In this document: positions 616-23,401 of the stretch, in pieces
Layout: every line of letters begins with the position of its first letter
Numbering within the stretch: the stretch's first letter is position 1
IMG/VR virus record: IMGVR_UViG_2667528074_000003
Location: 1 to 23,401 of that record
Source of the DNA: a virus
Lineage: Duplodnaviria > Heunggongvirae > Uroviricota > Caudoviricetes
DNA length: 23,401 nt
Direction: 5' to 3' (one strand)
Translations under genes and position numbers: made by a program
Notes under the pieces: model-generated
The model's database searches: none
The model's input: only the letters and a program-made list of their open reading frames with translations
What the model was told of the DNA's origin: nothing

Positions 616-629
616 ATGAGATTTCATCT

Positions 630-1373: not shown

Positions 1374-1758
1374 TTAATAAATGGCTATTTTTACAAAGAG
1401 ATAATAACGTAGATTGAAACAATATGTATTATTGATTGATTAAACGGGATTATTTTTTACACTACAACCATTTTGCTGCCACTACCAAAGAAAAAGGGGC
1501 TACGCTTTCACGTAACCCCTTGATTTATTTGTTGAGCTGGCGGTGTCTGAATTGGTGCTGTAATTGGTTGAAATATTTATTCTAATGTCTGGTTCAACTT
1601 TCCTTAGCTGCCTGAAAGTTTTTTTGATCTTACCCATCAATAATAGGGTTACGGTACACCACGCCTGACTGATGAACTGCGTGCTCAGGGTTACCTCTTC
1701 AACGTAAAACCGTGGCAGGAGGTCCGGACTGAAAAAACTGCTCAGGACATTATCGGCG

Positions 1759-2016
1759 GTGGACGCACGGGTAGTCTGTAAACCGAACCGACTGGGGCGC
1801 AGTATGTGGCATCTTGTCGTGCTGTTGGAGGAGCTGTGCAAACGTGGTATTAACTTTCGTGCTCTGGCCCAATCTATATTTGCCCAACAATGGGGGGACG
1901 AATGCTGTAAAAGTAAAAGAATCTGCGATCTCAAAGTTATTGTGTTATTTTTATGTGAGCAGAAGATATTCATCAGAAACGATTATGTAAATCATTTTAT
2001 TTTGCCGACGGCCTGA
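1759..2016 (+). pseudogene. remnant of a Pin/Hin-type serine recombinase (DNA invertase), internal fragment only
   Basis: Translation VVCKPNRLGRSMWHLVVLLEELCKRGINFRALAQSIF matches the conserved central block of serine invertases as I recall it (Pin: VVWKLDRLGRSMKHL...ELRERGINFRSLTDSID). No N-terminal catalytic-Ser region or C-terminal HTH; the ORF tail is unrelated. Confidence 0.5.
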
Positions 2017-2285
2017 TTGTCGAAAGAAAAGAATACCCCCGTATTCCCTGAATAGATTGACTTTTTTATCCAACCATACTTCAGCGCACTGCGTTTAAAA
2101 AATGCTTCTTTCTTATGTGGAATATCATCATTTCATCATGATGTCTTTGATGAGCGGTGAACACAATACACTTGCGCTGTCTCTTCAGGATGAATCCCCT
2201 GGTCTGGTGCCTGTGGGCTGATGTTGCAGCAGAGCTAAGGTCGCTTAAACGCTACTCAGTATTCACTTTTCAGAGGATGAAATTT

Positions 2286-5200
2286 ATGAACAGGACCAGT
2301 CCCCATTATTGTCGCCGCTCAGTACTTTCCTTATTGATATCTGCCTTGATATATGCCCCGCCTGGGATGACGGCCTTCACTCCTGATGTTATTGGTGTGG
2401 TAAACGATGAGACTGTAGATGGCAGCCAAAGAGTAGATGAACGAGGTACAACAAATAACACTCATATTATCAACCATGGCCAGCAGAATGTTCATGGCGG
2501 GGTATCTAATGGAAGTCTTATTGAATCGGGTGGATATCAAGATGTAGGAAGTCATAACAATTTTGTGGGGCAGGCTAATAATACAACCATTAACGGAGGA
2601 AGACAGACAATTCATGACGGGGGCATTTCCACCGGTACGATAATCGACAGTGGCAATCAGGACGTTTATACAGGTGGTATCAGCAATGGAACGACAATTA
2701 AGGGTGGTAATTCACACATAAGTGGGGGGACTGCGAATGGAACCATCATTGATGGTGGAGGGCAGAAAGTAACAACTCAGGGGCATGTTGATGGTACAAC
2801 GATAAATAAGTCCGGTTATCAGGACATCACGCAAGGAAGTATTGCAACGAACACAATCATAAATGGTGGACGACAGTATGTTGAACAGAGCACAGTAGGA
2901 ACAACCACCATTAAAAATGGCGGTGAGCAAAGAGTATATGAAAGCCATGCGCTGGACACGACGATTGAAGGTGGAACTCAGTCTCTGAATAATAAGTCAA
3001 CGGCAAAAATACTCAGATCTATTCTGGTGGTACGCAAATTGTTGATTACACCAGCTCCTCGGATGTTATTGAAGTTTATTCCGGTGGCGTGCTTGATGTT
3101 AGTGGTGGTACGGCAACAAATGTTACCCAGCACGATGGTGCAATTTTAAAAACAAACACTAACGGTACGACGGTGAGCGGTACGAATAGTGAAGGTGCAT
3201 TCTCCATCCACAATCACGTGGCAGACAATGTGTTGCTGGAAAACGGTGGTCATTTAGACATAAACGCATATGGTTCGGCAAACAAGACGATTATTAAAGA
3301 TAAAGGAACAATGTCAGTTTTAACGAATGCTAAAGCTGATGCGACCCGAATAGATAACGGCGGGGTAATGGATGTTACCGGAAACGCGACCAATACCATA
3401 ATCAATGGTGGTACACAGAATATTAATAATCATGGTATTGCCACGGGTACCAATATCAACGGCGGAACGCAAAATATCAAGAGCGGCGGGAAAGCTGACA
3501 CGACAATTATATCCTCCGGGAGCCGGCAGGTTGTTGAGAAAGATGGTACGGCAACTGGCAGCAATATTAGCGCCGGAGGCTCGCTGATTGTCTATACCGG
3601 TGGTATTGCACATGGGGTTAACCAGGAGACGGGCAGTGCTTTAGTTGCCAACACGGGCGCAGGGACTGATATTGAAGGATACAACAAGCTCTCTCACTTC
3701 ACTATTACCGGAGGGGAGGCTAATTATGTTGTGCTGGAAAATACCGGCGAACTGACGGTAGTGGCTAAAACCTCGGCGAAAAATACTACCGTTGATGCTG
3801 GCGGTAAGCTGATTGTCCAGAAGGAGGCTAAAACAGATACCACCAGACTTAATAATGGTGGCGTTCTGGAGGTTCAGGACGGTGGTGAGGCTAAGCATGT
3901 TGAGCAACAATCCGGCGGCGCATTAATTGCTTCCACAACTTCCGGAACCCTTATCGAAGGAACCAACAGTTATGGTGATGCTTTCTACATCAGGAATTCA
4001 GAAGCTAAAAATGTAGTGCTGGAAAACGCTGGCTCATTAACAGTCGTCACTGGTTCCCGGGCAGTTGATACGATTATTAATGCCAACGGCAAAATGGATG
4101 TTTATGGAAAAGATGTTGGCACTGTACTCAATAGTGCTGGCACCCAAACAATATATGCCAGTGCCACTTCTGATAAAGCAAATATCAAAGGTGGCAAGCA
4201 AACGGTATATGGATTAGCCACTGAGGCAAATATCGAAAGTGGTGAACAAATTGTTGATGGTGGGTCAACAGAGAAAACACACATCAATGGTGGCACGCAA
4301 ACCGTTCAGAATTATGGTAAGGCAATCAATACCGATATCGTCTCTGGCCTACAACAAATTATGGCAAACGGGACAGCGGAAGGTTCCATTATTAATGGGT
4401 GTTCACAGGTAGTTAATGAGGGCGGTCTGGCTGAAAACTCGGTGCTTAATGACGGCGGCACACTCGATGTGCGGGAGAAAGGCAGCGCAACGGGGATACA
4501 GCAGAGTAGCCAGGACGCTTTGGTTGCAACCACCAGGGCGACGCGGGTCACAGGAACACGCGCGGATGGCGTCGCGTTCAGCATCGAGCAGGGTGCGGCG
4601 AACAATATCCTGCTGGCAAATGGCGGCGTGTTAACCATGGAGTCAGACACCTCTTCTGACAAAACACAGGTCAATACGGGCGGACGGGAGATCGTCAAAA
4701 CAAAAGCCACTGCGACAGGCACGACGCTCACCGGCGGCGAACAAATCGTCGAGGGGGTGGCGAATGAGACAACGATTAACGACGGCGGAATACAAACAGT
4801 TTCAGCTAACGGAGAGGCAATAAAAACAAAGATCAATGAAGGCGGTACGCTGACAGTTAACGATAATGGCAAAGCGACAGATATCGTCCAGAACAGCGGT
4901 GCCGCTCTCCAGACGAGCACGGCTAACGGTATTGAAATCAGCGGTACTCACCAGTACGGCACTTTTTCCATTTCCGGCAATTTAGCGACCAATATGTTGC
5001 TGGAAAATGGCGGTAATTTATTGGTATTAGCAGGTACCGAAGCTCGCGACTCCACGGTTGGCAGCGGTGGAGCCGCCAACGGCAGTTATCGCAGCAACGG
5101 GCTGGGCGGTCACATTGAAACCGGGATGCGATTTACCGATGGTAACTGGAACCTGACGCCGTATGCATCGTTAACGGGGGTTCACCGCTGATAACCCTGA

Positions 5201-5546
5201 ATATCATTTATCCAATGGCATGGAATCGAAATCAGTCGATACCCGCAGTTTATATCGTGAACTGGGTGCAACGCTGAGTTACAACATGCGTCTGGGGAAC
5301 GGTATGGAAGTTGAGCCGTGGCTGAAGGCGGCTGTGCGCAAAGAATTTGTCGATGATAACCGGGTGAAAGTGAATAGTGACGGTAATTTCGTCAATGATT
5401 TGTCGGGCAGACGTGGAATATACCAGGCAGGTATTAAAGCCTCATTCAGCAGTACGTTAAGCGGGCATCTTGGGGTGGGGTATAGCCATGGTGCCGGTGT
5501 GGAATCCCCGTGGAACGGGGTAGCTGGTGTGAACTGGTCGTTCTGA
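2286..5546 (+). pseudogene. AIDA-type autotransporter adhesin gene, disrupted by three homopolymer frameshifts and with a shortened beta-barrel domain
   Basis: RBS GAGGA then ATG 2286; signal-peptide-like N-terminus MNRTSPHYCRRSVLSLLISALIYAPPGMTA; long passenger of ~19-aa repeats (GGxQxVxxGGxAxxTxI); autotransporter C-terminus ending VAGVNWSF. Frame changes at A5 (3005-3009), and G5 (5176-5180); the barrel-like part is only ~150 aa. Confidence 0.6.
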
Positions 5547-5865: not shown

Positions 5866-7038
5866 TTACCGGGCTGCAGAAATCGCCGTTTTTCCATCGT
5901 ATTCTGCAAGGTAAGAGCCGTAATGTCTGAACAGCATTTCCGGTCCTTTGTGCCCCATCTGACCAGCCAGCCAGAACAGGTTAACGCCCTGGCTAATGTG
6001 CCGAGTGGCGAACGTATGGCGTGTCTGGTACGGATTGCGATAACGTACACCAGCCTTTTTAAGGGTCGGTACCCAGGCTTTTTTGCGGATCGCATCTGCG
6101 TTTGCCCAGGGAGCTCGAGTTTTCGGATCGCTGAATATGAAGTCGCTTTTTAGCGCCGTGTAGGGCTTTTGTGCCTGAAGAGCTACCAGCGCTTCGTTGT
6201 TCAGTTGTACTTTGCGAGTACCGGCTTTTGTTTTGGTACTTTTGATTACCCCGACTACGCTTGCAGTCTGGACATGTGCTGTGTTGCCGATGAAGTCTAT
6301 ATCTGTCCAGCGCAACGCGCACAATTCCGAGCTGCGTAGTCCGGTATTAAAGGCGAAACGAAACAGATTTTGCCATTCCGGGTAATGACAGGCGTCATAG
6401 ATTGCTGCTGTCTCTGCTGGCGTAAAAGGATCGACCTCGTAATCATCACTGCCTGGTGTGTTGTCCAATACGTGATACCGGCTGGCGCTGACCAGCGTGA
6501 CAGGATTTATTGTTAACAAACCATCGGTCACCGCTTCATCTATGGCGCTGCGCAGAAATGAAAGATTATTGCGGATCGTTTTCAGTTTTGTTTTTCTGCT
6601 GGCGATCCAGTTTTTGAGTACTGCAGGTGTCAGTTCTGATACATGAAATTTATGCAGTGCTGACAGTGCAGACAGGCATTTTTCATACCCTTTAATTGTC
6701 GATGGCGACAGGTTACGGTTCTGGCAGATAGTCAGGTATTCATCCAGGTAAGATTTTATATTTTTGTTTTTTTTCACTCCCCCGAACAGCTCCAGCTTTT
6801 GGGAGTTGGGGAAGTATTTTGCATATTCGAAGGTACCACCGATAATCTGATTTTTTATTTCTCCCAGCAGACGCTCGGCATACTTCACACCGCGCGCGTT
6901 TACTTCCATTCTGGAGAGGGGCTCCCGACACAGAACCCCTTTATATGTAAAAGTGATAACCAGAGTGCTACCAGTTTTATGCTGGCGAATAGTTACTCCT
7001 CTAGGGAGAGATAATGATCCTTGTTCTTTCTTGCCCAT
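5866..7038 (-). CDS. int: tyrosine site-specific integrase (lambda Int family)
   Basis: 390 aa; C-terminal catalytic region with RHTFATRHISQG and LAGQMGHKGPEMLFRHYGSY (conserved His/Arg and catalytic Tyr); GGAG RBS; adjacent to att core and transcribed toward it. Confidence 0.9.
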   Translation of the reverse strand: MGKKEQGSLSLPRGVTIRQHKTGSTLVITFTYKGVLCREPLSRMEVNARGVKYAERLLGEIKNQIIGGTFEYAKYFPNSQKLELFGGVKKNKNIKSYLDEYLTICQNRNLSPSTIKGYEKCLSALSALHKFHVSELTPAVLKNWIASRKTKLKTIRNNLSFLRSAIDEAVTDGLLTINPVTLVSASRYHVLDNTPGSDDYEVDPFTPAETAAIYDACHYPEWQNLFRFAFNTGLRSSELCALRWTDIDFIGNTAHVQTASVVGVIKSTKTKAGTRKVQLNNEALVALQAQKPYTALKSDFIFSDPKTRAPWANADAIRKKAWVPTLKKAGVRYRNPYQTRHTFATRHISQGVNLFWLAGQMGHKGPEMLFRHYGSYLAEYDGKTAISAAR

Positions 7039-8046: not shown

Positions 8047-8874
8047 TTATTTAATCTGGATAAATGGTGTATTGGCACCACTGGTCATGTATTGCGGCAG
8101 TGTACCGTTCCACTTGTTGATGGCTTCCAGTTCCATGACGCCTGGGTTCTGGCGCAGAGCTTCGCCGCGTAAACGAATGGCATCGGCTTCTGCCTGGGCT
8201 TTTGTACGAATCGCATCAGCCTGTCCGGCAGCTTCCGCGCGCAGCATGTTGGCTTCCGCTTCGCGCTGTTTTACTTCCTGCTCGCGTTGCAGGGTTTTCT
8301 GGTTCGCCGTGACTTTGGCATTAATGCTGTCGATAACGGTTGGCGGGTATTCCGGCTTACCCACATATGAGAGGCTCATTACCTGAATACCAATGGGTGT
8401 CATTTCTTCCTGAATGTCTTTGAGAGCTGCATCCAGAAGTTCAGACTTACCGCCGTCGATAAATTTGTCGGTGGTCATTTTGCTGGCCAGTCGGTTGAGT
8501 GCATCTGCGATCTTCTGGCGCAGGTCTGTGTCGGTAATGTCATCCACGCCTTTGCGGTAGGTCTGAAACACCGTGGTAACTTTGGATGGATCAACTTTGT
8601 AGGCCACACCGATGTGATAGCCGATGGTTGTACCGTCACTCATCTGGAAACTGAACGGTTCATCGTAGGTCTTCATTTGTTTGAAGGTGGGGAAGATATA
8701 AACTTCAGTATTCCAGCCAGTCCAGTAGCGACCAACACCGACCACCTCACCGACGCCTTTGTCGTCGCCCAGTTTATTTACCTTGATGCCAACATTACCT
8801 GGTTCAACGCGATCGCAACCGACAAGGCCAATGGTCGGAATAACAATGGCTAAAGCAAAAATAACTTTTTTCAT
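8047..8874 (-). CDS. SPFH/band-7 (stomatin-prohibitin-flotillin-HflK/C) domain lipoprotein
   Basis: 275 aa; N-terminal signal with lipobox (MKKVIFALAIVIPTIGLVGC); SPFH-like core; C-terminal Ala/Glu/Arg/Gln-rich coiled coil (QREQEVKQREAEANMLRAEAAGQADAIRTKAQAEADAIRLRGEAL); AAGGA RBS; ATGA overlap with the upstream gene. Confidence 0.8.
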   Translation of the reverse strand: MKKVIFALAIVIPTIGLVGCDRVEPGNVGIKVNKLGDDKGVGEVVGVGRYWTGWNTEVYIFPTFKQMKTYDEPFSFQMSDGTTIGYHIGVAYKVDPSKVTTVFQTYRKGVDDITDTDLRQKIADALNRLASKMTTDKFIDGGKSELLDAALKDIQEEMTPIGIQVMSLSYVGKPEYPPTVIDSINAKVTANQKTLQREQEVKQREAEANMLRAEAAGQADAIRTKAQAEADAIRLRGEALRQNPGVMELEAINKWNGTLPQYMTSGANTPFIQIK

Positions 8875-9059
8875 CTTTTATCCTTAGTGAAAGAAAGACC
8901 CTTGTAAATGGCATAAATGCAGGGCGGGGTCAGAAACGCCAGTGCAAAGCCGGAAATGACTGCTACCGTATCCTTCATGGATATAAGGAACGGGACGAGT
9001 AGTCCGTAAATGCATGCGATAATTGCCAGTAAAATTACTATTCTGAAATACAATCTCAT
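8871..9059 (-). CDS. small two-helix membrane protein, translationally coupled to the SPFH lipoprotein
   Basis: 62 aa with two hydrophobic stretches (IVILLAIIACIYGLLVPFLI and VISGFALAFLTPPCIYAIY); its stop overlaps the SPFH start (ATGA). Weak RBS. Confidence 0.55.
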   Translation of the reverse strand: MRLYFRIVILLAIIACIYGLLVPFLISMKDTVAVISGFALAFLTPPCIYAIYKGLSFTKDKR

Positions 9060-9203
9060 TGGTTTGTTGCATCCCGATATTTTTAACTGACTGACAGCGC
9101 AATAAAGAGAATAATGATTTCTGTTAGTGTCAGTACTGTGGCAAGGATTAAAAACAGTTTTACTCTGCTTAATTCACGGTTGCTTTTCATATAAACGGTT
9201 AGT

Positions 9204-11200: not shown

Positions 11201-11890
11201 CTAACCAAATCTGTTTATATTGAATGGTACTGATGAGATCACTTTAGACTGGATATAAAGCAGAGCTAACCCCTCTTTTTCGATGCTCCATGGTTGATAA
11301 TTGGGGTTATCAGATAACACCATGATTTTGCTTCCAATTTTTTGAAGTCTTTTCACGTAGCATTCTCCATCAAAACAAAATGCATAAATGCCATCGCCAT
11401 CAAAATAAGTTACTGTCTTATCAAGAAAAAGAAGGTCGCCAGGTGAGATTGTGGGAGCCATACTGTCTCCTCTGGCGTTGCCTATTTCTATATTTTTAAA
11501 TGCTCGGTTTCCAACAAGACGACGGGCATATTCAGGATCAAGTTCTATTGAGCGTACTACATCTATAAAGTCTCCGCGGACATGGGTCCCATTACCGCAA
11601 CTAAATTCAACGTCAAGTACATTAAACACGACGCTATCTGTTCTTGCCTGATGTTTCTCTTGCGAAGAGAAGGTTGGTGAGGTGTCTTCACCTAAGAACC
11701 AGGATTGTGGATAACCGCTAATCTCTGATAACTGCGCAAGCTTATCGCTCCGTGGAAATGTTTTTCCTGTGGTCCAGTACTGCACTGATTGCGCACTCAC
11801 CCCCAGCTTACGGGCCAGCTGAGCCTGAGTCCATCCTTTTGCTTTCAGCATTGCGGCTATTCTATTTTCTGTGTTTTTGACGTTCTTCAT
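11201..11890 (-). CDS. cI: CI-type prophage repressor (N-terminal HTH plus C-terminal S24/LexA-like autopeptidase)
   Basis: 229 aa; HTH WTQAQLARKLGVSAQSVQYW; S24 motifs GDSMAPTISPGD (Ser nucleophile) and CYVKRLQK (Lys); divergent from a cro-like gene. Confidence 0.85.
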   Translation of the reverse strand: MKNVKNTENRIAAMLKAKGWTQAQLARKLGVSAQSVQYWTTGKTFPRSDKLAQLSEISGYPQSWFLGEDTSPTFSSQEKHQARTDSVVFNVLDVEFSCGNGTHVRGDFIDVVRSIELDPEYARRLVGNRAFKNIEIGNARGDSMAPTISPGDLLFLDKTVTYFDGDGIYAFCFDGECYVKRLQKIGSKIMVLSDNPNYQPWSIEKEGLALLYIQSKVISSVPFNINRFG

Positions 11891-14148: not shown

Positions 14149-14362
14149 TTATGCTCACAGGTAACACATGCAAGTACTCAATCGCTGGTTCCGCGATGGC
14201 AGAGGGCGTCGCGTCCACGTTATACACTGGGAGTCTGAAACACAGCGGGTCATTTACCTGCGTGATGGTTATTCGCATGAATGCTTCAGTCCGTTGTGGT
14301 TGTTTCGTCGTGATTTTGTGGAGTGTGAAGCGCCGCCAGAGTGACGGCGTAATGGTGGAAAC

Positions 14363-14671
14363 TTACACGAAGCGGATCTGGAGTTTTTTTCCTGTTGCGC
14401 GGGCAAATTTTTTCAGTGTGGAAAATGATGGTCCACTGACACCTGACGCCAGATTACTTTCCATTCTGCTGATGACAGTTGCTTTGGTTCCCATACGCTC
14501 AGCGATCTCAGCTTGGGTTAAACCAGCTTCTTTACGTGCTGCCAGCATTTCATCAAGCAACGCAAATTCGTCGGCGATGGCGTCGTATTCTGCTTTAAAA
14601 GCTGGATCCTCCATCCATTTATCAGCCATTTCATCATGTGTAATGGTTGGCGGATTACGTTTACCAGTCAT
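14363..14671 (-). CDS. HigA-like antitoxin (XRE HTH)
   Basis: 102 aa with HTH GLTQAEIAERMGTKATVISRMESN; immediately downstream of and overlapping (11 nt) the toxin gene, the toxin-first order typical of HigBA modules. Confidence 0.8.
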   Translation of the reverse strand: MTGKRNPPTITHDEMADKWMEDPAFKAEYDAIADEFALLDEMLAARKEAGLTQAEIAERMGTKATVISRMESNLASGVSGPSFSTLKKFARATGKKLQIRFV

Positions 14672-14990
14672 GCTTTACCTCCTTCATTCTGGTTTCAGCT
14701 TTTTGGCGTTCGGCTGGTGGGGTTTTCTGGGTCTTCTTGATGAAACTATGCAGCATGATGATGCGTTTTCCTGCCAGGGTGCAGTAAAAGACGCGTGCGA
14801 TGCCATCACTACCTTTAATCCGAAGCTCGAAAAGCCCGTTACCGAAAGCACTGGTATGAGGTTCTCCGAGATTGCTGCCGTATACCTTCATGCGTTCAAC
14901 AAGATGCTGGTATCGGGCACGCATACTCAATGGAAGCTGGTCGACCTCCAGCCTGACCTCTTCACTGTAGTATTCGATAGTGTAGTTCAT
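14661..14990 (-). CDS. HigB/RelE-superfamily toxin (phage gp49-like mRNA interferase family)
   Basis: 109 aa; characteristic motifs NGLFELRIKGSDGIARVFYC and IMLHSFIKKTQKTP. Confidence 0.8.
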   Translation of the reverse strand: MNYTIEYYSEEVRLEVDQLPLSMRARYQHLVERMKVYGSNLGEPHTSAFGNGLFELRIKGSDGIARVFYCTLAGKRIIMLHSFIKKTQKTPPAERQKAETRMKEVKHDW

Positions 14991-14996
14991 GAGTTA

Positions 14997-15020
14997 AAAC
15001 ATAACAAAATGGTTATGTTT
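14997..15020. promoter_or_regulatory. palindromic operator candidate upstream of the toxin gene
   Basis: Perfect 9-bp inverted repeat AAACATAAC-N6-GTTATGTTT ending 7 nt before the toxin start codon; overlapped by a TTGTGC-17-TATGTT promoter-like element on the minus strand. Confidence 0.4.
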
Positions 15021-15671
15021 GCACAATATATTGATTCTGCAATTTCGGGACGTTACACTGTTCCAGCACCTTATAAAGCGGGTGCCGGGATTTGCACCCC
15101 GGAATTGCATACGGCGATATATGACGCGCCAGCGTCTTTTTTATCGTCCGCGCTCACGCACGCCAGAATTATGGTGGGCTGGGTAGGGGAGCCGAAAGGC
15201 TCGCCGGTTTCCGTATGCGCCGGTAGTGCAAACCCTGTTCAGTCCGCCACCAGCGAGATTTGCACCTCCGGTGGTGGAAGTTATCCATTGCATACGGAGG
15301 CTGCCATCATGGCTACAGTCCCAACTTCCCCATTCCTCAAAATTGAGATCGTCAACGGTAAGGCCGTTATTTTTTCCCTGCATGTTGCCTGCCACTTCAA
15401 GCGCATGCACCAGAACATCGTTGACAAAATCGAGTATCTGAACTGCTCGCGTGAATTTTTTACCCGCAATTTCATTCCGGGTACTTATCACATCTATGGT
15501 GACTCTCTGCGTGGTTATTACATCACCCTTGATGGTCTGATGATGCTTCAGCTTGGGTTAAGTCTGCGCACAATGCGGTACTACGAGAGCTGTATTGATG
15601 CATTCCATGAAGCTGAAACCGTCCAGGTACATTCCGCTTTCCGTCGTCATCAACGGGAGGTGCACCTATGA
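15009..15671 (+). CDS. Rha-domain phage regulatory protein, tandem paralog 1 (start uncertain)
   Basis: C-terminal ~110 aa carry a Rha-like winged-helix pattern (SLHVACHFKRMHQNIVDKIEYL ... YYITLDGLMMLQLGLSLRTMRYYESCIDAFHEAE). ATG 15009 has no SD; an internal ATG at 15309 has a GGAGG RBS. The frame stays open upstream only because it is antisense to the TA genes. Confidence 0.55.
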   Translation: MVMFAQYIDSAISGRYTVPAPYKAGAGICTPELHTAIYDAPASFLSSALTHARIMVGWVGEPKGSPVSVCAGSANPVQSATSEICTSGGGSYPLHTEAAIMATVPTSPFLKIEIVNGKAVIFSLHVACHFKRMHQNIVDKIEYLNCSREFFTRNFIPGTYHIYGDSLRGYYITLDGLMMLQLGLSLRTMRYYESCIDAFHEAETVQVHSAFRRHQREVHL

Positions 15672-16333
15672 TCCGCTACCTGAATATTGATTCTGCACTT
15701 TTGGAACGTTACACTGTCTCTGCACCTTATAAAGCGGGTGCCGGGCGTGGAAACCCGAAATTCAATATAGAGCACAACCGCGCTCATGCGGTTTTTTCGT
15801 GTCATGAGCATTGCTACGCCCAAATTATGGTGGGGCGTGCAGGGCCAACTTCGGTTGGGCCGGGTTCTATGTTGACCGGTATTTCCACCCCTGTACGTCT
15901 CACCACCTATATGGTCGTGGAAAGCCTTGGTGGTGAGTTCTTTGAATTCAACATAGGGGCTGTCACCATGACTACCACCACTACCCACCCATTCCTCAAA
16001 ATTGAGATTATTAACGGTAAGGCCGTTATTTTCTCCCTGCATGTAGCCTGCCATTTCAAGCGCATGCACCAGAACATCGTCGACAAAATCGAGTACCTGA
16101 ACTGCTCGCGCGAATTTTTCACCCGCAATTTCATACCGGGTACTTATCACATCTATGGTGACTCTTTGCGAGGTTATTACATCACCCTTGATGGCCTGAT
16201 GATGCTTCAGCTTGGGTTAAGTCTGCGCACAATGCGGTACTACGAGAGCTGTATTGAAGCATTCCATGAGGCAGAAACCAGCGTGAATCATACCGCTTTT
16301 CGCCGTAATCAATGGGAGGCGCGCCATGTGTAA
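15668..16333 (+). CDS. Rha-domain phage regulatory protein, tandem paralog 2
   Basis: 221 aa; ATG overlaps the stop of paralog 1 (ATGA) and is preceded by GGGAGGTG; the C-terminal domain is nearly identical to paralog 1 with mostly synonymous differences. Confidence 0.65.
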   Translation: MIRYLNIDSALLERYTVSAPYKAGAGRGNPKFNIEHNRAHAVFSCHEHCYAQIMVGRAGPTSVGPGSMLTGISTPVRLTTYMVVESLGGEFFEFNIGAVTMTTTTTHPFLKIEIINGKAVIFSLHVACHFKRMHQNIVDKIEYLNCSREFFTRNFIPGTYHIYGDSLRGYYITLDGLMMLQLGLSLRTMRYYESCIEAFHEAETSVNHTAFRRNQWEARHV

Positions 16334-17764: not shown

Positions 17765-18643
17765 ATGATGACGTTTAACCTGCGTGAACAACAAACAAGA
17801 CTACAGGCGCGGATGGATGAGTTACGGTCTGAGATGGCGTTTGCGGAGACTGGGGAAAAACCGTGGCCTTATCGTTCCTGCCGGATGTGTGAAGGTCGCG
17901 GATATTGCGAAAAACATGGCGAATATCACACGCATATTCTGGTGTGGGGGGATCGTAATGGCGAGGACAGAGAGAAAATTTCACACTGTCCTCACTGCCT
18001 GAGTGCTGAAATCAACGATGTGATTATGGAGTTGTCGTCCCTGAAGGCGGAAGAACTGACTGATAACGCCGGAATTGCACTGCGTTTTCGTGACTGTGAG
18101 TTTGAAAACTATCAGGAGATTAATCCTGACGCAGCCAGAAATCTTGCTGCCTGTCGTCGCTATGCCGAAAACTGGGCGGATGTTCTGGAGAATGGCACAA
18201 ATCTCGTGCTGACTGGCAGTTGTGGCACCGGTAAAAATCACCTGGCGGTTGCGATGGCAAAATATGTCATCCGCAACTATCTCGCCAGTGTTGAGATCAC
18301 CGACGTGATGCGCCTGACCCGGGCTGTGAAAAACTGCTGGCGGAATGACAGCGAAAAAACTGCGGATGAGGTGATTGAGCATTATGCATCACTGGATCTG
18401 CTGATTATCGACGAAGTGGGTGTCCAGTTTGGTAGCGCGGCGGAAATGGCCATTCTTCAGGAAATTATCAATGCCCGGTACGAAAGTATTCTGCCAACCA
18501 TCCTGATCAGCAATCTTTCACCGAAGGCGTTGTGGGCATACATCAGTCCACGTATTGCTGACAGGGTTACGGATGGTGGCCGTAACCTGTTGTCCTTCAA
18601 CTGGCCCAGCTACCGGGCACATACCGGAGGTGTGGCAGCATGA
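17765..18643 (+). CDS. DnaC-like helicase loader (AAA+ ATPase) with N-terminal Cys-rich region
   Basis: Walker A LTGSCGTGKNHLAVAMA (DnaC-type GTGKNHL), Walker B LLIIDEVG; CxxC...CPHC cluster near the N-terminus; RBS GAGGTGA before ATG 17765 (track GTG at 17756 is an alternative). Confidence 0.85.
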   Translation: MMTFNLREQQTRLQARMDELRSEMAFAETGEKPWPYRSCRMCEGRGYCEKHGEYHTHILVWGDRNGEDREKISHCPHCLSAEINDVIMELSSLKAEELTDNAGIALRFRDCEFENYQEINPDAARNLAACRRYAENWADVLENGTNLVLTGSCGTGKNHLAVAMAKYVIRNYLASVEITDVMRLTRAVKNCWRNDSEKTADEVIEHYASLDLLIIDEVGVQFGSAAEMAILQEIINARYESILPTILISNLSPKALWAYISPRIADRVTDGGRNLLSFNWPSYRAHTGGVAA

Positions 18644-20040
18644 TCAGCCAGAACAGTCCGGTCTGGCGTAACGATGATCTGGAAGGTGCTGTTATTGGCG
18701 CATTCTTTTTGCGTGGGGCAGATCCGGAAGTGATGGATATTCTGGCCACACTACCGGCGGACGTTTTTTCTGTACGACCGTACCGGGATATCTACACAGG
18801 CATCTGCAGACAGGCCCGTGTGTCCGGCGTGATTGATCCTGTGCTGTTGTGCAATGAGATGCCGGAACTTGCCCCGGTGATTACTGATACCGGGCGTAAA
18901 ACCTGGGTGAAGTCATCTCTGGAACACTATGTTGCAGCACTGCGACGCAATGCCGCACTGCGTGATGCAGAAAAAACACTGGCCGAAGCATTGCAGAAAT
19001 TACGTGATGCGCATACCTGTGAAGCAGCTGAAGATGCCCTGAAGGATGCTCAAAACATGATGGTCTCATTGTCGACCGAAAAGGGCATTATTCAGCCTGT
19101 ACACATTGATGATGTACTTCCGGAGGTGGTTGACCGTGTTGAATGCCGGAATCAGGGGCTGGAGAAATCCAGGACGTTGATGACCGGTATTGATGAGCTG
19201 GACGCAAAAACAGGAGGCATGGAGCCCGGCGACCTGATATTCATCGCGGCGCGCCCTTCGATGGGGAAAACAGAACTGGCGCTGGATATCATCGACAAAG
19301 TGACTGAACAGGGGCGCGGTGTTCTTCTGTTCACAATGGAAATGGCGAACATTCAGATCGGTGAACGCATGGTGTCTGCTGCCGGAGGAATGCCTGTATC
19401 GCGCCTGAAATCTGTCTCTAACTTTGGTGACGAAGACTGGGCGCGTTTCATTAAGGGTGTGGAGCTGATGACCGGACGCAATATCTGGATGGTGGACCAG
19501 GCGAACCTGACCATTGACGAGATATGCGCAACAACGAAACACCATTTGATTAAACATCCGGAAACGGCACTGGTGGTGGTTGATTATCTCGGGCTGATAA
19601 AAACCCGAACCACGGGGCGTCATGACCTTGCCGTGGGTGAAATCTCAAAGGGACTTAAAGGCCTGGCAAAATCCGGTGGTTTTCCGTTGATTGCGCTGAG
19701 CCAGCTTTCCCGCAGTGTGGAGTCCAGACCAAATAAACGTCCCATGAACTCAGACCTGAAAAATTCCGGAGAAATAGAGGCGGATGCTGACATCATTCTG
19801 ATGCTTTACAGGGATGAAGTGTACAACCCGGATACGCAGGCCAGGGGCATCGCAGAAATTAATATCACGAAGCAACGTAATGGTTCTCTGGGGACGATTT
19901 ACCGACGTTTTTATAACGGACATTTTCTGCCCGTAGACCAGGAAAGCGCACAGGTTCTTTCTACACCAATGCAGCCGTCCAGACCGCGAAGATACAGTAA
20001 CAAACGAACTGACAGCAGTAAGATGGAGCGTTTCTTTTGA
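18640..20040 (+). CDS. DnaB-family replicative helicase
   Basis: 466 aa; DnaB-like N-terminal domain; Walker A ARPSMGKTELALDI; ATGA overlap with the DnaC-like gene. Confidence 0.85.
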   Translation: MISQNSPVWRNDDLEGAVIGAFFLRGADPEVMDILATLPADVFSVRPYRDIYTGICRQARVSGVIDPVLLCNEMPELAPVITDTGRKTWVKSSLEHYVAALRRNAALRDAEKTLAEALQKLRDAHTCEAAEDALKDAQNMMVSLSTEKGIIQPVHIDDVLPEVVDRVECRNQGLEKSRTLMTGIDELDAKTGGMEPGDLIFIAARPSMGKTELALDIIDKVTEQGRGVLLFTMEMANIQIGERMVSAAGGMPVSRLKSVSNFGDEDWARFIKGVELMTGRNIWMVDQANLTIDEICATTKHHLIKHPETALVVVDYLGLIKTRTTGRHDLAVGEISKGLKGLAKSGGFPLIALSQLSRSVESRPNKRPMNSDLKNSGEIEADADIILMLYRDEVYNPDTQARGIAEINITKQRNGSLGTIYRRFYNGHFLPVDQESAQVLSTPMQPSRPRRYSNKRTDSSKMERFF

Positions 20041-20051
20041 ACAACCAGACA

Positions 20052-20294
20052 ATGACTTTTACCCCTGAACAATTACGTAAACAGGCACAGGAAATGTTGC
20101 GACAAGCGGAACAACTGGAAAAAACAGGTGTAACAAAAGATACCATTCGTCGGGATATGGTTCCCGCGCTCAGAGAATTGATGCAGGCGAAACACCGTGC
20201 ACAAAAAGCGGTGGATGAGCTGGTGGATTGTGTGGCAGAGCTGGAAACCAAAGTTGGAAAGTTTGAAAAACTGGTGCATGAGGTGCTGCGCTGA
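20052..20294 (+). CDS. hypothetical small helical protein (80 aa)
   Basis: ATG 20052 (track TTG at 20037 overlaps the helicase stop); stop overlaps the ATG of the next gene; weak RBS. Confidence 0.45.
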
Positions 20295-20677
20295 TGCGTG
20301 ATATTCAGATGGTTCTTGAGCGTTGGGGAGCGTGGGTGGCAAATAATCATGAGGATGTTACCTGGTCATCGATTGCAGCCGGATTCAAGGGGCTTATTCC
20401 TTCAAAGGTTAAATCGCGACCGCAATGTTGTGACGATGATGCGATGGTTATTTGTGGTTGCATGGCTCGTCTGAAAAAGAGCAACAATGACTTGCATGAT
20501 TTGCTGGTGGATTATTACGTTTGGGGCATGACGTTTATGAGGCTGGCGCAGAAGCATAATTGCTCTGATGGATATATCGGGAAAAGGTTACAGAAAGCAG
20601 AGGGAATAATCGAAGGTATGTTAATGGCATTAGACATTTGCTTAGAGATGGATATTGATGTTACTAAGCTTAATTAA
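20294..20677 (+). CDS. late-gene antiterminator Q-like protein (phage 82 / DLP12 QuuD-like)
   Basis: 127 aa at the canonical position after the replication genes and before the late region; N-terminus [14 protein letters not shown] and Cys cluster ([12 protein letters not shown]) match my recollection of DLP12 QuuD; followed by a hairpin-rich leader. Confidence 0.6.
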
Positions 20678-20758
20678 TACGATTATTTTTTAATAAAAAA
20701 CGGGGCGTAAAAACACCCCCAAGATAAAGGGTAATATATAACAGAAAGTTTAGATAGT

Positions 20759-20840
20759 AAGAAGCAGGGCTCTAATGCTTCTTAAAGAAGTGGCTTGAGG
20801 GAGCCACTTATATGCTGAGAAGATAAAACCTTCTCAGCAT
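20759..20840. promoter_or_regulatory. cluster of three consecutive perfect hairpins between Q and the porin gene (candidate late-leader terminator region and porin terminator)
   Basis: Hairpin A 20759-20783 (8-bp stem), B 20788-20809 (8-bp stem), C 20812-20840 (11-bp stem ATGCTGAGAAG/CTTCTCAGCAT); C lies 17 nt beyond the porin stop on the opposite strand. Confidence 0.4.
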
Positions 20841-20857
20841 ATCCTTTATTAACCAGA

Positions 20858-21961
20858 TTAGAACTGGTATACCATACCTACAGCAACGATATCGTCAGTG
20901 TTTACACCAAGAGCTTTAGTAAAGTCATTTTTGTCAAGCAGGTTGATTTTGTAATCAACGAAGGTAGACATATTTTTGTTGAAATAATAAGTTGCGCCAA
21001 CATCAACATATTTGACTAAATCCTGGTCACCAAAAATGCCAAGATCTTTACCTTTTGATTGCAGATAAGCAACAGACGGACGCAGACCGAAATCGAACTG
21101 ATATTGTGCAACAGCTTCGAAGTTTTGTGCTTTATTAGCCACAAAGTAATCTGCGAATTTAGTCATATTCTGGGTTTCTGAATAGGTTGTTGCCAGATAA
21201 ACGTTGTTTGCGTCGTATTTCAGACCTGCAGCCCAGACTTCTGCATTTTCGCCGGAAGCAAATACTCCTGGGAGAAGTTTACCCAATTTGACTTGAGTGT
21301 CGGTACGATCAGATTTCGCATACGTTGCACCAATGCCGAAACCTTCGTATTCATAGGTCGCAGAGAAACCAAAACCATCGCCATTGCCTTTGGTGTAGTT
21401 ATCTAAGCTACTACGATCATGATTATTCTTACCCTGGTACTGTGCAGCAAAATTCAGACCATCAACCAGACCAAAGAAGTCGTTGTTACGATAAGTTGCA
21501 ACACCAGTGGTACGACCAGTCATGAATACATCTGTTTGGGTCCAGGTATCTCCACCGAATTCTGGCAGGACGTCAGTCCATGCACCGATATCGTATGCTA
21601 CACCGTAGTTACGACCGTAATCGACGGAGCCGTAGTCACCGAATTTAAGCCCTGCAAATGCAAGACGGGTTTTATCTTTGGCTGCTCCCTGTTCTTCAGT
21701 ACGGTTTCCTTTGAATTCATATTCCCACTGACCGAAACCAGTCAGTTGATCGTTGATCTGAGTTTCGCCTTTGAAACCCAGACGAGCATAAGTTGTGTCG
21801 CCATCATTTGCATCGTTAGAGGAGAAGTAGTGCTTAGCATTAACTTTTCCGTACAGATCCAACTTGTTGCTGTCTTTATTATAAATCTCTGCTGCCTGAG
21901 CAGACATCGCCATCAGTACTGATGCAGCCACAGCAGAAATTGCCACCGTTAATTTTTTCAT
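20858..21961 (-). CDS. outer-membrane general porin of the OmpC/OmpF/PhoE family (phage-borne NmpC/Lc-like)
   Basis: 367 aa; signal peptide [23 protein letters not shown] then AEIYNKD...; near-colinear with OmpC as I recall it ([38 protein letters not shown], terminal MVYQF); opposite orientation to the phage operons; AT-rich upstream region. Confidence 0.9.
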
Positions 21962-22468
21962 CACGAACCCTTTTTTTTGAACTATTTTTAAAAAATGATG
22001 TCACTGCGCGATAAATATTCATCTAATCAATGTGGTTATTTCAAGAGTCAAGTTTAATTTAGTGATTGATAATATGATCAAGATCTCATTTATGCGCGTT
22101 GGTATAATTTGTTGATATTTTTGTGTAATGCGGAATTTAATTAATGAAATACATTATTTACTCATTTTTCATTGAAAAATAACAATGATGTATTTGATGT
22201 AATATGTGTTATTCGTATGTTTTGTTTTGTTATATTGCATTAACATTTGAGTGGCGTATTTGTGGTTTACGTACGTAAAAATTCAATTATGATGTTAAGA
22301 GTGGTTGCTTCGACTCCTTCCTTAAAACCGCCGTCGGGCTGTTTTTTGTACCCGAAAAACGGCACAGGACGTTAAACGTGCTGGTGGTTGCGAATACTGG
22401 TCTTTCAGCTTGCTGGCTTTTTCGACAAGAGTTATTGGTATGTCACGTTAACCAGAAAGGAAAAAGAC

Positions 22469-22663
22469 ATGCTAAAACAGCAGGATATGACCGAAACTGC
22501 CAGAGTGGTGTTTAATGAATTAAGCGTCACCGAACCGGCGACCGTCGGGGAAATTGCGCAGAATACTTACCTTTCACGCGAACGCTGCCAGTTAATACTG
22601 ACTCAGCTTGTTATGGCGGGTCTGGCAGATTATCAGTTCGGTTGTTACAGACGTCTTCCGTAG
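22469..22663 (+). CDS. hypothetical small protein (64 aa), possibly winged-helix-like
   Basis: ATG 22469 with AGGAAA RBS (track start 22388 has no RBS); precedes the methyltransferase gene. Confidence 0.45.
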   Translation: MLKQQDMTETARVVFNELSVTEPATVGEIAQNTYLSRERCQLILTQLVMAGLADYQFGCYRRLP

Positions 22664-22816
22664 TGAAGGCTTTTTAATTTGTGGTAATGGGCGGCTGGTG
22701 GGTGTTAGCGGCACCTGCCAGCCATCTGCTCATGCGTTGGGGTCACAAGCAAACCTCAGGCCCATCTGCTTTGCGCAAAAGCGGTATGAGCCTATCAGAG
22801 AAGTGCTTATTGATCT

Positions 22817-23401
22817 ATGGCTAATACTGTAAAAATATCCAGTTGTGAGTTAATCAACGCTGATTGCCTGGAATTTATCCGGACCTTACCGGAAAACTCC
22901 GTCGATCTGATAGTCACAGACCCGCCATACTTTAAAGTGAAGCCCGAGGGCTGGGATAACCAGTGGAAGGGCGACGCTGATTACCTGCAATGGCTGGACC
23001 AGTGTCTTGCGCAGTTCTGGCGGGTATTAAAACCCGCCGGAAGTCTTTACCTGTTCTGTGGTCATCGCCTGGCATCTGATACCGAAATCATGATGCGTGA
23101 ACGCTTTAATGTACTGAACCACATTATCTGGGCGAAGCCGTCCGGACGCTGGAACGGGTGCAACAAGGAAAGCCTGCGGGCGTATTTCCCGGCAACAGAA
23201 CGCATTCTGTTTGCCGAACATTATCAGGGGCCATATCAGCCAAAAAATGACGGCTATGCGGCAAAAGGGCGCGAGCTTAAGCAGCACGTCATGGCCCCGC
23301 TGATTGCTTACTTTCGTGATGCGCGTGAATCACTGGGGATAACGTCGAAACAGATAGCGGAAGCCACCGGAAAGAAAAACATGGTTTCGCACTGGTTTGG
23401 T
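22817..23401 (+). CDS. DNA methyltransferase (DPPY motif, N6-adenine-type), 3'-truncated by the window end
   Basis: Not in the ORF track because no stop is reached; open from ATG 22817 to the window end (195 codons); motif IV LIVTDPPYF near the N-terminus. Confidence 0.75.
   Translation, partial: MANTVKISSCELINADCLEFIRTLPENSVDLIVTDPPYFKVKPEGWDNQWKGDADYLQWLDQCLAQFWRVLKPAGSLYLFCGHRLASDTEIMMRERFNVLNHIIWAKPSGRWNGCNKESLRAYFPATERILFAEHYQGPYQPKNDGYAAKGRELKQHVMAPLIAYFRDARESLGITSKQIAEATGKKNMVSHWFG

Follow-up and report, generated by a model that had tools for sequence, protein, structure and literature searches.

M.EcoGII (EGT69837.1) of E. coli O104:H4 C227-11 is an experimentally characterised, prophage-borne N6-adenine methyltransferase of class beta (349 aa), which acts on adenines irrespective of sequence context and, in vitro, blocks numerous restriction enzymes; a role in anti-restriction has been proposed for it (Murray et al. 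2018, PMC5778455). Neither this enzyme nor M.EcoGI, from the same strain, is expressed in the lysogen, and constitutive expression of M.EcoGII is deleterious (PMC5778455). [quoted passage not shown] Reconstructed ancestors of the M.EcoGII clade stay largely non-specific (PMC11551740). M.EcoGI, identical to M.EcoGII at 333 of 349 residues, is also reported to be non-specific, and the same is predicted for O111 STEC homologues, from which no methylation signal was obtained in culture. An enzyme of the M.EcoGII family is commercially available for footprinting methods on chromatin and RNA. In the accessible literature, we found neither published proof that an enzyme of this kind hypermethylates the DNA of progeny phage nor an explanation of how a harmful methyltransferase stays silent.

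Orphan methyltransferases of the Dam type (M.EcoVT2Dam of Stx2 phages, T4 Dam and P1 Dam) are likewise phage-borne, lack a partner and are presumed to protect phage DNA against restriction; they recognise GATC and belong to another family. A methyltransferase gene under the control of its own leader is known in ermC, which is regulated by translational attenuation.

An arrangement close to the one described here has been reported in the Stx2e phage phiP27, where a small gene, a spacer and a methyltransferase gene (L23/L24) follow each other downstream of a Q-like gene (Recktenwald and Schmidt 2002). The 45-kb Stx2a phages similarly carry a "transcriptional regulator + DNA methylase" between q and the tRNAs (PMC8456039), and phage 1720a-02 encodes a very similar enzyme (PMC5778455).

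The methyltransferase gene and its module

The stretch of DNA analysed here (23,401 nt, hereafter the window) contains a lambdoid prophage, in which genes for integrase, CI, Cro, replication and Q are present. The features of its right-hand part are as follows.

20294–20677, + strand: Q antiterminator gene, 127 aa, Q21/Q933W family (Pfam PF06530 Phage_antitermQ, 180.6 bits, E 1.1e-53)
20858–21961, − strand: OmpC/Lc-type porin gene, a moron between Q and the late-promoter block (Pfam Porin_1, 505.9 bits)
22259–22347, + strand: putative late promoter (pR') block, assigned from a promoter-like site and synteny
22469–22663, + strand: small gene for a stand-alone winged-helix protein of 64 aa (ORF from ATG 22469 to TAG 22663; homologues; AF2 model)
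22653–22680, + strand: terminator-like hairpin across the stop codon of the small gene (stem 22653–22670), followed by the T-run TTTTTAATTT
22676–22819, + strand: conserved structured leader of the methyltransferase mRNA, ~140 nt (covariance model R1, 126.5 bits)
22687–22733, + strand: leader hairpin A (covariance and folding)
22740–22816, + strand: leader domain B (covariance and folding)
22817–23401, + strand: N6-adenine DNA methyltransferase, class beta, M.EcoGI/M.EcoGII family, N-terminal 195 codons (ORF, Pfam, PHROG, identity)
22919–22930, + strand: catalytic motif IV, D-P-P-Y, residues 35–38 (read directly from the sequence and its translation)

The ATG at 22817 opens a frame without a stop up to base 23401, and the gene is truncated by the end of the window, with 56% of it inside and ~153 codons missing. 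When domain limits are taken from PMC11551740, the visible part spans the catalytic half and then ~36 residues at the start of the target-recognition domain. Its DPPY aligns with the DPPY of M.EcoGII and with that of solved class-beta enzymes. Residues 29–134 match positions 1–105 of the 221 in Pfam profile PF01555 (N6_N4_Mtase) with 63.1 bits (E 4.9e-17), which exceeds the curated cut-off of 26.7 bits, and the fragment also matches PHROG 6025, "DNA methyltransferase" (E 7.6e-104).

The C-terminal half can be viewed in an intact protein of 348 aa from E. coli EC11 (WP_057780570.1), to which the window fragment is 96% identical. This relative has FMGSG (motif I, FxGxG) at residues 309–313, near its C-terminus, and DPPY near its N-terminus, the motif order of class beta (IV, recognition domain, I); M.EcoGII and M.EcoGI share this order and the N-terminal DPPY. 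A search of PDB sequences returned distant class-beta enzymes as top matches, which aligned in two stretches, one N-terminal and one C-terminal, and no solved structure from the M.EcoGII clade. In NCBIfam, only models of other adenine methyltransferases were hit, all below threshold, so that no equivalog name applies. Together, these comparisons bear out the first-pass annotation, which had described an open frame from 22817 to the window end, running off it, with DPPY near the N-terminus and of the N6-adenine type.

We consider it likely, taking the mechanism proposed below into account, that the frame represents the 5' portion of a partner-less N6-adenine methyltransferase gene of class beta, carried by a phage and belonging to the M.EcoGI/M.EcoGII family. 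This gene would be the last element of a mobile module of three parts, in which the small winged-helix gene and a structured leader precede it. Such a gene call is routine; thousands of genomes have annotated members of this characterised family, and the methyltransferase gene is an ordinary, well-known prophage gene, the finding of which is not new.

Relatives of the module occur across Enterobacterales. Copies of the 933-base stretch from the small gene to the window end, 80–97% identical, are present in 2149 of 5426 complete E. coli genomes (~40%), with up to seven copies per genome, and because of this abundance the observation lies far beyond chance. The closest complete E. coli genome is 97.0% identical, and six loci with an identical porin are 95.6–96.7% identical over the last 1.2 kb. 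Among the described phages, phiP27 shares 93% DNA identity from 22277 to the window end, and phage 1720a-02 is 88.4% identical to window positions 22292–23397, small gene and leader included.

The small winged-helix gene

The small ORF that had been noted ahead of the methyltransferase is a real gene. Its 64-aa product has 334 homologues, and it lies at a fixed distance 5' of the methyltransferase in 58 of the 75 species-representative loci with enough upstream DNA. The AF2 model (pLDDT 91.4) has an H-H-H-wing topology, for which Foldseek found generic winged-helix domains in the PDB (TM up to 0.85). The protein is named "TrmB family transcriptional regulator" in RefSeq, its match to the TrmB Pfam profile being below threshold (18.1 vs 25.6 bits), and it falls into PHROG 331 (E 1.7e-37), where its function is given as unknown. 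The ORF of the window lacks its last codon, where a C-to-T change makes TAG. Relatives carry an equivalent of the hairpin across this stop codon with compensatory changes; the T-run is absent in some of them.

A structured leader precedes the methyltransferase

The spacer between the two genes is a conserved, apparently undescribed folded RNA. In domain B, the basal helix pairs GGUCA-C-AAGCA with UGCUU-AU-UGAUC (13 nt directly 5' of the ATG), while an alternative helix, UCUGCU/AGCAAA, competes with both hairpin A and domain B. In the alignment, 94–95% of cells are paired, compared with 28–43% when the partners are slid, and changes on both sides are found at 11–14 pairs vs 3–9 with slid partners. 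The alternative helix covaries too (CG 17, AU 9, UA 7 and UG 3 at one pair), and the minimum free energy (MFE) of the leader has a z-score of −3.8. RNAalifold on the first MAFFT alignment recovered a partial structure, as the E. coli-type sequences were misaligned across hairpin A and H4, and the up and down fold classes were read from the dot-bracket strings of MFE folds.

Searches of Rfam 15 returned no match to the leader in window positions 20500–23401 at E ≤ 1, where the only hit was GcvB at 20694–20862 (18 bits vs 42); in a Salmonella locus at E ≤ 5, the sole overlap with the leader was P26 on the opposite strand (16 bits vs 36). A pattern scan of IMG/VR tied the leader to one kind of gene. 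Among the matches listed, all 92 genuine leaders precede this methyltransferase gene or its remnant: in 88, the gene starts 51–53 nt beyond the pattern; of the others, two are truncated where their contig stops, one stands ahead of a remnant left by a deletion, and one, a second copy, is followed by a garbled gene. The pattern also gave, among the matches listed, 28 chance matches with neither leader nor methyltransferase gene.

The leader probably serves to control a toxic enzyme. We propose, as a plausible but still tentative reading, that 22676–22819 is an undescribed two-state cis-regulatory RNA that is dedicated to genes of the M.EcoGII family and gates an enzyme harmful to the cell. In such a switch, (G/A)UCAC-AAGCN may have two possible partners, the stretch in front of the AUG in the off state and a UUNGCU segment further upstream in the alternative fold. 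Candidate triggers would be a ligand, the product of the adjacent winged-helix gene, or translation of a short frame in the upstream part of the leader. The short frame starts in the 5' arm of hairpin A and reads MGGWWVL in most relatives; its length is 7, 18 or 45 codons, and it is absent in some Xenorhabdus loci. The design resembles ermC-type translational attenuation and other leaders that sequester the ribosome-binding site, which likewise have a folded 5' leader with a basal helix pairing the pre-start stretch, two mutually exclusive folds (both covarying here) and a short upstream reading frame. However, the two share no sequence relation and the short frame is conserved here neither in length nor in sequence, which limits the likeness to one of logic.

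The same spacer might instead act as DNA, with the small winged-helix protein as a controller comparable to the C proteins of restriction-modification systems and the inverted repeats as its operators. Such a protein has a DNA-binding fold and is encoded directly upstream of the spacer, and one hairpin apex is a perfect palindrome (GCTTTAGC/GCTAAAGC) whose variants are still palindromic (TGTGCACA, TGTCGACA). We nevertheless regard a DNA control region as unlikely, since 13 loci retain the complete spacer without the small gene, and conserved G-U pairs of the + strand (GU 43/53, GU 36/53 and UG 26/53 at three pairs) would be A-C mismatches on the other strand. Moreover, the stem sequences vary freely while complementarity is kept, unlike operator half-sites. 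Known C proteins are of the XRE helix-turn-helix type and not winged helices, and their palindromic C-boxes lie upstream of the gene for the C protein itself, whereas the repeats here lie downstream of the small gene.

Several other candidates in the spacer were rejected. A 45–47-codon frame (22681/22687–22824), which would make the spacer a protein gene, closes after 7 codons in most relatives; a promoter with TGTGAAAAT as extended −10 was dismissed as its TG-to-hexamer spacing is not conserved; and a helix ATCAG/CTGAT beside the ATG was dropped given its uncompensated T/C variation.

Comparison with M.EcoGII

Across the window fragment, 177 of 195 residues (91%) are identical to M.EcoGII and 18 differ, and the closest full-length relative is identical at 295 of 345 positions (86%); the reference sequence was machine-read from a PDF table and likely contains reading errors, so that the true identity may be slightly higher. 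The C-terminal 44% of the window allele, including the SAM-binding motif and most of the recognition domain, lies outside the window. Like the window enzyme, M.EcoGII is encoded on a prophage and has no endonuclease partner. The allele is predicted to methylate adenines with little or no sequence specificity, because of this identity to M.EcoGII and the reported non-specificity of members and ancestors of the clade. This sets it, as a PF01555 enzyme of class beta, apart from the Dam-type orphans.

A sequence-specific orphan enzyme, Dam-like or with another motif, could in principle serve epigenetic control of phage or host genes. Some database records do name such proteins "site-specific DNA-methyltransferase", PF01555 members are mostly site-specific, and 9% of the visible residues differ from M.EcoGII, with the recognition domain mostly outside the window. 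These points are outweighed by the high identity to M.EcoGII, both in the window and in the closest full-length relative, and by the reported non-specificity of M.EcoGI and of the more distant reconstructed ancestors. In addition, lysogen methylomes show no motif from homologues, and a location between pR' and the lysis genes is ill-suited to a regulator expressed in the lysogen. We thus judge sequence-specific control quite improbable and retain the prediction of a non-specific enzyme.

Gene integrity and downstream neighbours

We also considered whether the gene decays downstream of the window, by frameshift, truncation or deletion, in the source genome. Damaged relatives exist: in one locus (L006), whose assembly contains many other split genes, the gene is split into pieces of 161 and 148 aa, and in another (L113), an internal deletion fuses the leader to residue ~283. 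In the window itself, the small ORF has lost its last codon and the hairpin after pR' is degenerate. On the other hand, the 195 codons of the source allele are undamaged and 96% identical to intact genes, the leader scores 126.5 bits with every helix present, and the full 348-aa gene is found in seven of the eight closest loci. A decaying remnant therefore seems to us improbable.

In the closest relatives, what comes next to the intact 348-aa gene is either a set of genes for hypothetical, TerB and DUF3927 proteins or the holin genes themselves, with endolysin and terminase further on. Lysis genes lie 3' of the methyltransferase in phiP27, EC11, the six loci with the identical porin, phage Ayreon (where a holin is next) and most of the 76 species-representative GTDB loci. 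In phiP27, unlike in the closest relatives of the window, tRNAs and stx2e come after the methyltransferase; a tRNA scan detected none in the window and none after the gene in EC11. At the 76 loci, the two downstream ORFs taken per locus (150 in total) are mostly holins and lysozymes. Frequent families among the matches listed are lysozymes, holins, Tad2-like domains and toxin-antitoxin proteins, the Tad2-like (Thoeris anti-defence) domain being present in 11 of the 150 frames.

No endonuclease was found in the 23,401-nt window, and none flanks the methyltransferase gene in the eight close loci. Although the window ends inside the gene and its downstream neighbour lies beyond, an endonuclease just past base 23401, completing a conventional restriction-modification pair, is hardly credible, given the genes that follow in the eight closest loci, in phiP27 and in Ayreon, the absence of any restriction-enzyme family from the 25 most frequent of the 35 Pfam families matched by the 150 ORFs, and the lack of an endonuclease in the upstream part of the window as well. 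Judged by the loci of its relatives, with the source genome read up to position 23401, the methyltransferase would be an orphan late gene, because it occupies a late-operon position and no endonuclease was found in the eight close loci or recognised at the 76 others. The earlier suggestion of a probable orphan phage methylase, with no endonuclease partner visible in the window, thus holds in its relatives, in which neither a broken gene (in seven of the eight closest loci) nor an adjacent endonuclease was encountered.

Late-region context and proposed role

The Q gene has the same orientation as the methyltransferase and also matches PHROG 79, "anti-termination protein Q-like"; PF06530 corresponds to the Q21/Q933W family (bioRxiv 10.1101/651190). 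Q is expected to be the regulator that switches on the late operon containing the methyltransferase. With Q upstream, and holin, endolysin and terminase genes after the methyltransferase in all relatives, the initial assignment to the late region is well founded.

The putative pR' block, assigned by synteny, contains a promoter-like TTTACG-16-TATGAT at 22266–22293, an initial transcribed motif that is conserved (GTTAAGAGTGG) and, at ~22325–22350, a weak hairpin plus T-run. This hairpin is degenerate in the window, whereas its equivalent in phiP27 is clean (CCCGCC-GCCT-GGCGGG-TTTTTT). The same ~90 bp precede the lysis genes in phages without the methyltransferase: in ev243, the block lies ~140 nt before the annotated holin, and in PA-2, between the porin gene and the lysis genes. 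Both phages share the layout of Q, porin gene on the − strand, block and lysis genes, and at one further locus (L021), the block is joined directly to the leader. A scan with the promoter consensus gave fewer promoter-like sites than in shuffled sequence.

This arrangement recalls the lambda unit of pR', 6S RNA and tR' and the antitermination of the Q21/Q933W type, to which the PF06530 Q belongs here as well: a putative promoter block, a hairpin with a T-run and the late genes succeed one another, and morons are inserted between tR' and the lysis genes, as stx is in Stx phages. It differs in that the porin gene separates Q from the block, and pR' is assigned here by synteny only. Late operons of the Q21/Q933W type are expected to have a pR' with a Q-binding element, a sigma-dependent pause site and a terminator. 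In lambdoid prophages, the module occupies the slot that stx has in Stx phages, after the late promoter region and ahead of the lysis cassette.

We propose the following course of events. The gene would be silent in the lysogen, as reported for M.EcoGI and M.EcoGII (PMC5778455) and for the O111 homologues; for the source lysogen, the same is suggested by its place behind pR' and terminator-like hairpins and by the pairing in front of the ATG. After induction, Q would let RNA polymerase that started at pR' pass the terminator-like hairpins into the module, as the position of the genes suggests. The enzyme would then methylate adenines of the replicating phage DNA with little or no specificity, and once packaged, the genomes would be shielded when the next host attacks them with restriction sensitive to adenine methylation. 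The folded leader, whose structure is supported by covariation, may further hold down expression through its pairing with the pre-start stretch; such extra control would be in place because the enzyme harms the cell.

Most likely, the enzyme hypermethylates phage DNA against restriction. The first-pass annotation had offered anti-restriction as one possible role, and support for it comes from M.EcoGII, for which this role was proposed on account of an enzyme that lysogens do not express and that in vitro blocks numerous restriction enzymes. The placement between late promoter and lysis genes, together with the lack of a recognised partner at over 80 loci, favours a phage counter-defence active only in lytic growth, and the conserved leader with its compensatory changes offers a concrete, testable candidate for the silencing control.

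The porin gene lies outside the methyltransferase module. An identical porin protein is encoded on many contigs, and phiP27 has a GIY-YIG gene in the corresponding place.

Family assignment of the methyltransferase gene

From the ATG at 22817, the reading frame stays open for 195 codons through the final base of the window, and the D-P-P-Y motif occupies residues 35-38 (nt 22919-22930). The first-pass annotation had described this frame, with DPPY near its N-terminus, correctly as written, and the exact position of the motif is the sole refinement to that observation. Residues 29-134 match the first half of the Pfam profile N6_N4_Mtase with 63.1 bits (cut-off 26.7), and the frame matches PHROG 6025, ‘DNA methyltransferase’, with an E-value of 7.6e-104. 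The best of 24 phage records matching the last 1.2 kb is the Stx2e phage phiP27 (93.1% identity), whose counterparts L23, annotated as ‘TrmB family transcriptional regulator’, and L24, annotated as ‘DNA methyltransferase’, are flanked by a Q-like gene on one side and the tRNA-stx2e-lysis genes on the other. Over 20600-23401 (2.8 kb), EC11 is the complete E. coli genome closest to the window; it is 98.1% identical and carries an intact 348-residue gene (WP_057780570.1), the product of which is 96% identical to the window fragment. Its FMGSG motif lies near the C-terminus, which gives the motif order of class beta. Matches to solved class-beta enzymes, among them RsrI, CcrM, MboIIA and DpnA, fall into an N-terminal and a separate C-terminal stretch, as fits a variable middle domain.

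The window fragment shares 177 of 195 residues (91%) with M.EcoGII, a characterised non-specific N6-adenine methyltransferase of E. coli, and the EC11 protein shares 295 of 345 (86%), both figures being affected by probable reading errors in the M.EcoGII sequence, which was machine-read from the PDF of Supplementary Table S1 of PMC11551740. Together with the Pfam score, the identity of the window fragment upholds the N6-adenine type proposed earlier. M.EcoGII is a 349-residue prophage enzyme of exactly the same build as the window gene; it methylates adenine in any context and blocks many restriction enzymes, is silent in the lysogen, and does harm under constitutive expression (PMC5778455). 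Phage 1720a-02, named in that study as bearing a very similar gene, is among the DNA matches of the window (88.4%). The catalytic fold of M.EcoGII comprises residues 1-134 and 260-349 and its four-helix recognition domain residues 160-237, and reconstructed ancestors of its clade stay largely non-specific (PMC11551740). By these limits, the window covers the N-terminal catalytic half and approximately the first 36 residues of the recognition domain. The methyltransferase is ordinary: its family is characterised and very widespread, with existing annotations in phiP27 (2002) and thousands of other genomes.

Prophage setting and the putative late promoter region

The gene lies in a lambdoid prophage; features of the window are as follows.

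1-5546: host genes, encoding DUF5507, DUF5508 and an AIDA-type autotransporter in three ORFs
5866 onward: lambdoid prophage
5866-7038, minus strand: integrase
8047-8874, minus strand: SPFH/Band 7 family gene, in the early-left region beside DUF5406 and DUF4222 genes
11201-11890, minus strand: CI-like repressor
18640-20040: DnaB helicase
20294-20677: Q antiterminator, family PF06530
20858-21961, minus strand: OmpC/Lc-type porin (Lc/NmpC-like, 367 aa), between Q and the late-promoter block
22469-22663: small gene, a 64-codon ORF followed by a 153-nt spacer

The prophage also holds a Cro/YdaS-like gene, Rha and Ash genes, a replication initiator candidate and a DnaC-like loader. PF06530 is the Q21/Q933W family (bioRxiv 10.1101/651190). 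The autotransporter pieces (2157-3149, 3089-5191 and 5220-5546, the last being the beta-domain end only) adjoin the integrase, and the gene, which appears broken, may be a pseudogene located at the attachment site or close to it. At 14151-16333, in the early-right region, neighbouring genes of 506 and 221 aa each carry Ash as well as Rha domains and look like a tandem duplication; the EC11 counterpart of this region has a RelE/ParE toxin-antitoxin pair instead.

A promoter-like site, TTTACG-16-TATGAT, is found inside 22259-22347. Phages without the methyltransferase, PA-2, ev243 and lambda hybrids among them, carry this block too; it lies between the porin gene and the lysis genes in PA-2 and ~140 nt upstream of the annotated holin gene in ev243; in both phages the porin gene likewise separates Q from the block. 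Because methyltransferase-less phages share it upstream of their lysis genes, we read it, on the strength of synteny, as a putative late promoter region. With Q upstream and, in relatives, lysis genes downstream, the late-region placement claimed for the methyltransferase is borne out, and the module would be transcribed from the late promoter pR' under Q control. The hairpin following the putative promoter (22325-22350) is degenerate, with ~3 bp, in the window and its closest E. coli relatives, so the small gene could receive more read-through in this lineage; the phiP27 version is a clean 6-bp GC stem with T6. The Ayreon phage has the module (terminator, small gene, spacer and methyltransferase gene) behind a different Q type and ahead of the holin gene. 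The module therefore behaves like a mobile insert that uses the slot of stx, between late promoter and lysis genes. Of 5426 complete E. coli genomes, 2149 contain the 933 bases from 22469 to 23401 at 80-97% identity, and one genome may hold as many as seven module copies. A protein identical to the window porin is indexed in 574 blocks of a public assembly collection.

Downstream neighbours and orphan status

In EC11 and six loci encoding the identical porin, the gene order is Q, porin (opposite strand), a 65-aa gene and the 348-aa methyltransferase gene, followed by hypothetical, TerB and DUF3927 genes, or by nothing, and then by two holins, endolysin and terminase. The exception is L006, a low-quality assembly in which many other genes are split as well: the 65-aa gene is not called, and the methyltransferase gene (8130-9140) is split into 161- and 148-aa pieces. 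In another locus, L113 (2137-2458), a deletion fuses the leader to approximately residue 283 of the methyltransferase; both are decayed copies.

Scanning one genome per species yielded 80 loci at 60-88% identity in Escherichia, Salmonella, Citrobacter, Enterobacter, Klebsiella, Kluyvera, Buttiauxella, Mixta, Rosenbergiella, Photorhabdus, Xenorhabdus, Proteus and Morganella. We took the two ORFs directly 3' of the methyltransferase gene in 76 of the 80 loci (150 ORFs) for a Pfam scan. Frequent families were phage lysozyme (29), six holin families (48 together), a Tad2-like domain (11), DUF7823 (8) and toxin-antitoxin proteins, and no restriction-enzyme family was among the 25 listed of the 35 matched. 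No endonuclease was recognised in the window, beside the gene in its close relatives, or among the families listed for the 76 distant loci, in keeping with the earlier remark that no partner was visible, and the reading as an orphan phage methylase holds. As for its anti-restriction role, which is the one proposed for M.EcoGII, the enzyme would hypermethylate progeny DNA as a counter-defence.

The Tad2-like domain (Thoeris anti-defence 2) is encoded by 11 and DUF7823 by 8 of the 150 ORFs just 3' of the methyltransferase gene (species-representative loci L009-L086), which points to a small group of counter-defence genes in the late operons of certain prophages.

The small winged-helix gene

The small ORF noted ahead of the methyltransferase is present, with 64 codons. 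A C-to-T change creates its TAG stop (22661-22663) one codon early, giving 64 residues versus 65 in relatives (CAG TGA). Its 334 homologues are named ‘TrmB family transcriptional regulator’ or ‘DprA-like winged helix’ in databases, and its Pfam TrmB match is below threshold (18.1 versus 25.6 bits). The AlphaFold model, from 26 sequences, has a mean pLDDT of 91.4 and comprises three helices and a beta-hairpin wing. Foldseek against the PDB returned only generic winged-helix domains, including IclR and MarR regulators, an O-methyltransferase dimerisation domain and SelB RNA-binding domains. The small gene stands at a fixed distance upstream of the methyltransferase gene in 58 of the 75 loci holding upstream DNA, and 13 loci keep the spacer without it.

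A conserved leader RNA before the methyltransferase gene

The leader spans 22676-22819. E. coli-type sequences show stronger conservation in the spacer than in the flanking coding DNA, and the spacer is still present, clearly diverged in sequence, as far away as Proteus and Morganella. Single-sequence folding of leaders from these three groups gave the same architecture in most of 40 sequences. Hairpin A (22687-22733) pairs AUGGGC with GCUCAU below a long stem, GGCUGG...CCAGCC. Domain B (22740-22816) has a basal helix of GGUCA-C-AAGCN with NGCUU-AC-UGAUC, the second strand of which ends 1 nt before the AUG, or at the AUG if the flanking pair forms, and two nested hairpins at its apex. MFE z-scores are -3.8 and -4.0.

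In a MAFFT alignment of the 40 sequences, 94.1% of cells pair, versus 29-43% with slid partners, and 11 pairs are changed on both sides, versus 3-8; none of 500 shuffles reached the observed values. A model-based alignment of 53 distinct sequences gave 94.6% paired and 14 such pairs, figures that carry some bias because the alignment leans to the structure and the structure was derived from the same sequences. Several strongly conserved pairs are plus-strand G-U (in 43, 36 and 26 of the 53 sequences at three of them), which speaks for a sense-strand RNA and against a symmetric DNA site.

The covariance model derived from the alignment gave exactly one strong match per detected methyltransferase locus, and the match always stopped at the ATG; every close relative has one, as do 45 of the 80 species-representative loci. 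The model found none in the Xenorhabdus/Photorhabdus loci (L051-L078), where the spacer is shorter (76-100 nt) and starts with a hairpin over the stop codon of the small gene and the motif GGUGAAA; a second hairpin, followed by a U-run in many loci, resembles an intrinsic terminator. A pattern scan of IMG/VR yielded at least 92 genuine leaders. Among the matches listed, the leader always stands directly before the methyltransferase gene or its remnant: 88 of 92 have the gene 51-53 nt further on, two end at a contig edge, one precedes a deletion remnant, and one is a second leader copy within its stretch, ahead of a garbled methyltransferase gene. No Rfam 15 family matches the leader, and none of the papers searched mentions M.EcoGII together with ‘riboswitch’. 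Of everything described here, just the leader RNA may be new, as a lead of moderate probability.

Covariation is also seen in a competing helix, UUNGCU with AGCNAA (one pair is CG in 17, AU in 9, UA in 7 and UG in 3 sequences). Forcing it raises the predicted folding energy by 0-2.6 kcal/mol in several sequences, so two leader states are plausible; in the window-type leader the cost is ~10 kcal/mol. The leader would act as a brake on translation or transcription.

A nearly invariant GATC (Dam site) lies at 22810-22813, right before the methyltransferase ATG (…TGATCTATG). The leader segment GGTCAC/GATCAC, complementary to the pre-ATG stretch, resembles the 3' end of 16S rRNA, so this pairing may mimic the anti-Shine-Dalgarno interaction. 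Finally, a short frame (22687-22824) of 45 codons, or 47 from a GTG at 22681, begins at the invariant AUG in the basal part of hairpin A and ends 5 nt past the methyltransferase ATG. From the same AUG, most relatives have 7 codons only (MGGWWVL), with two Trp codons within the 5' arm of hairpin A, and Proteus has 18; the frame might encode a leader peptide, or nothing.
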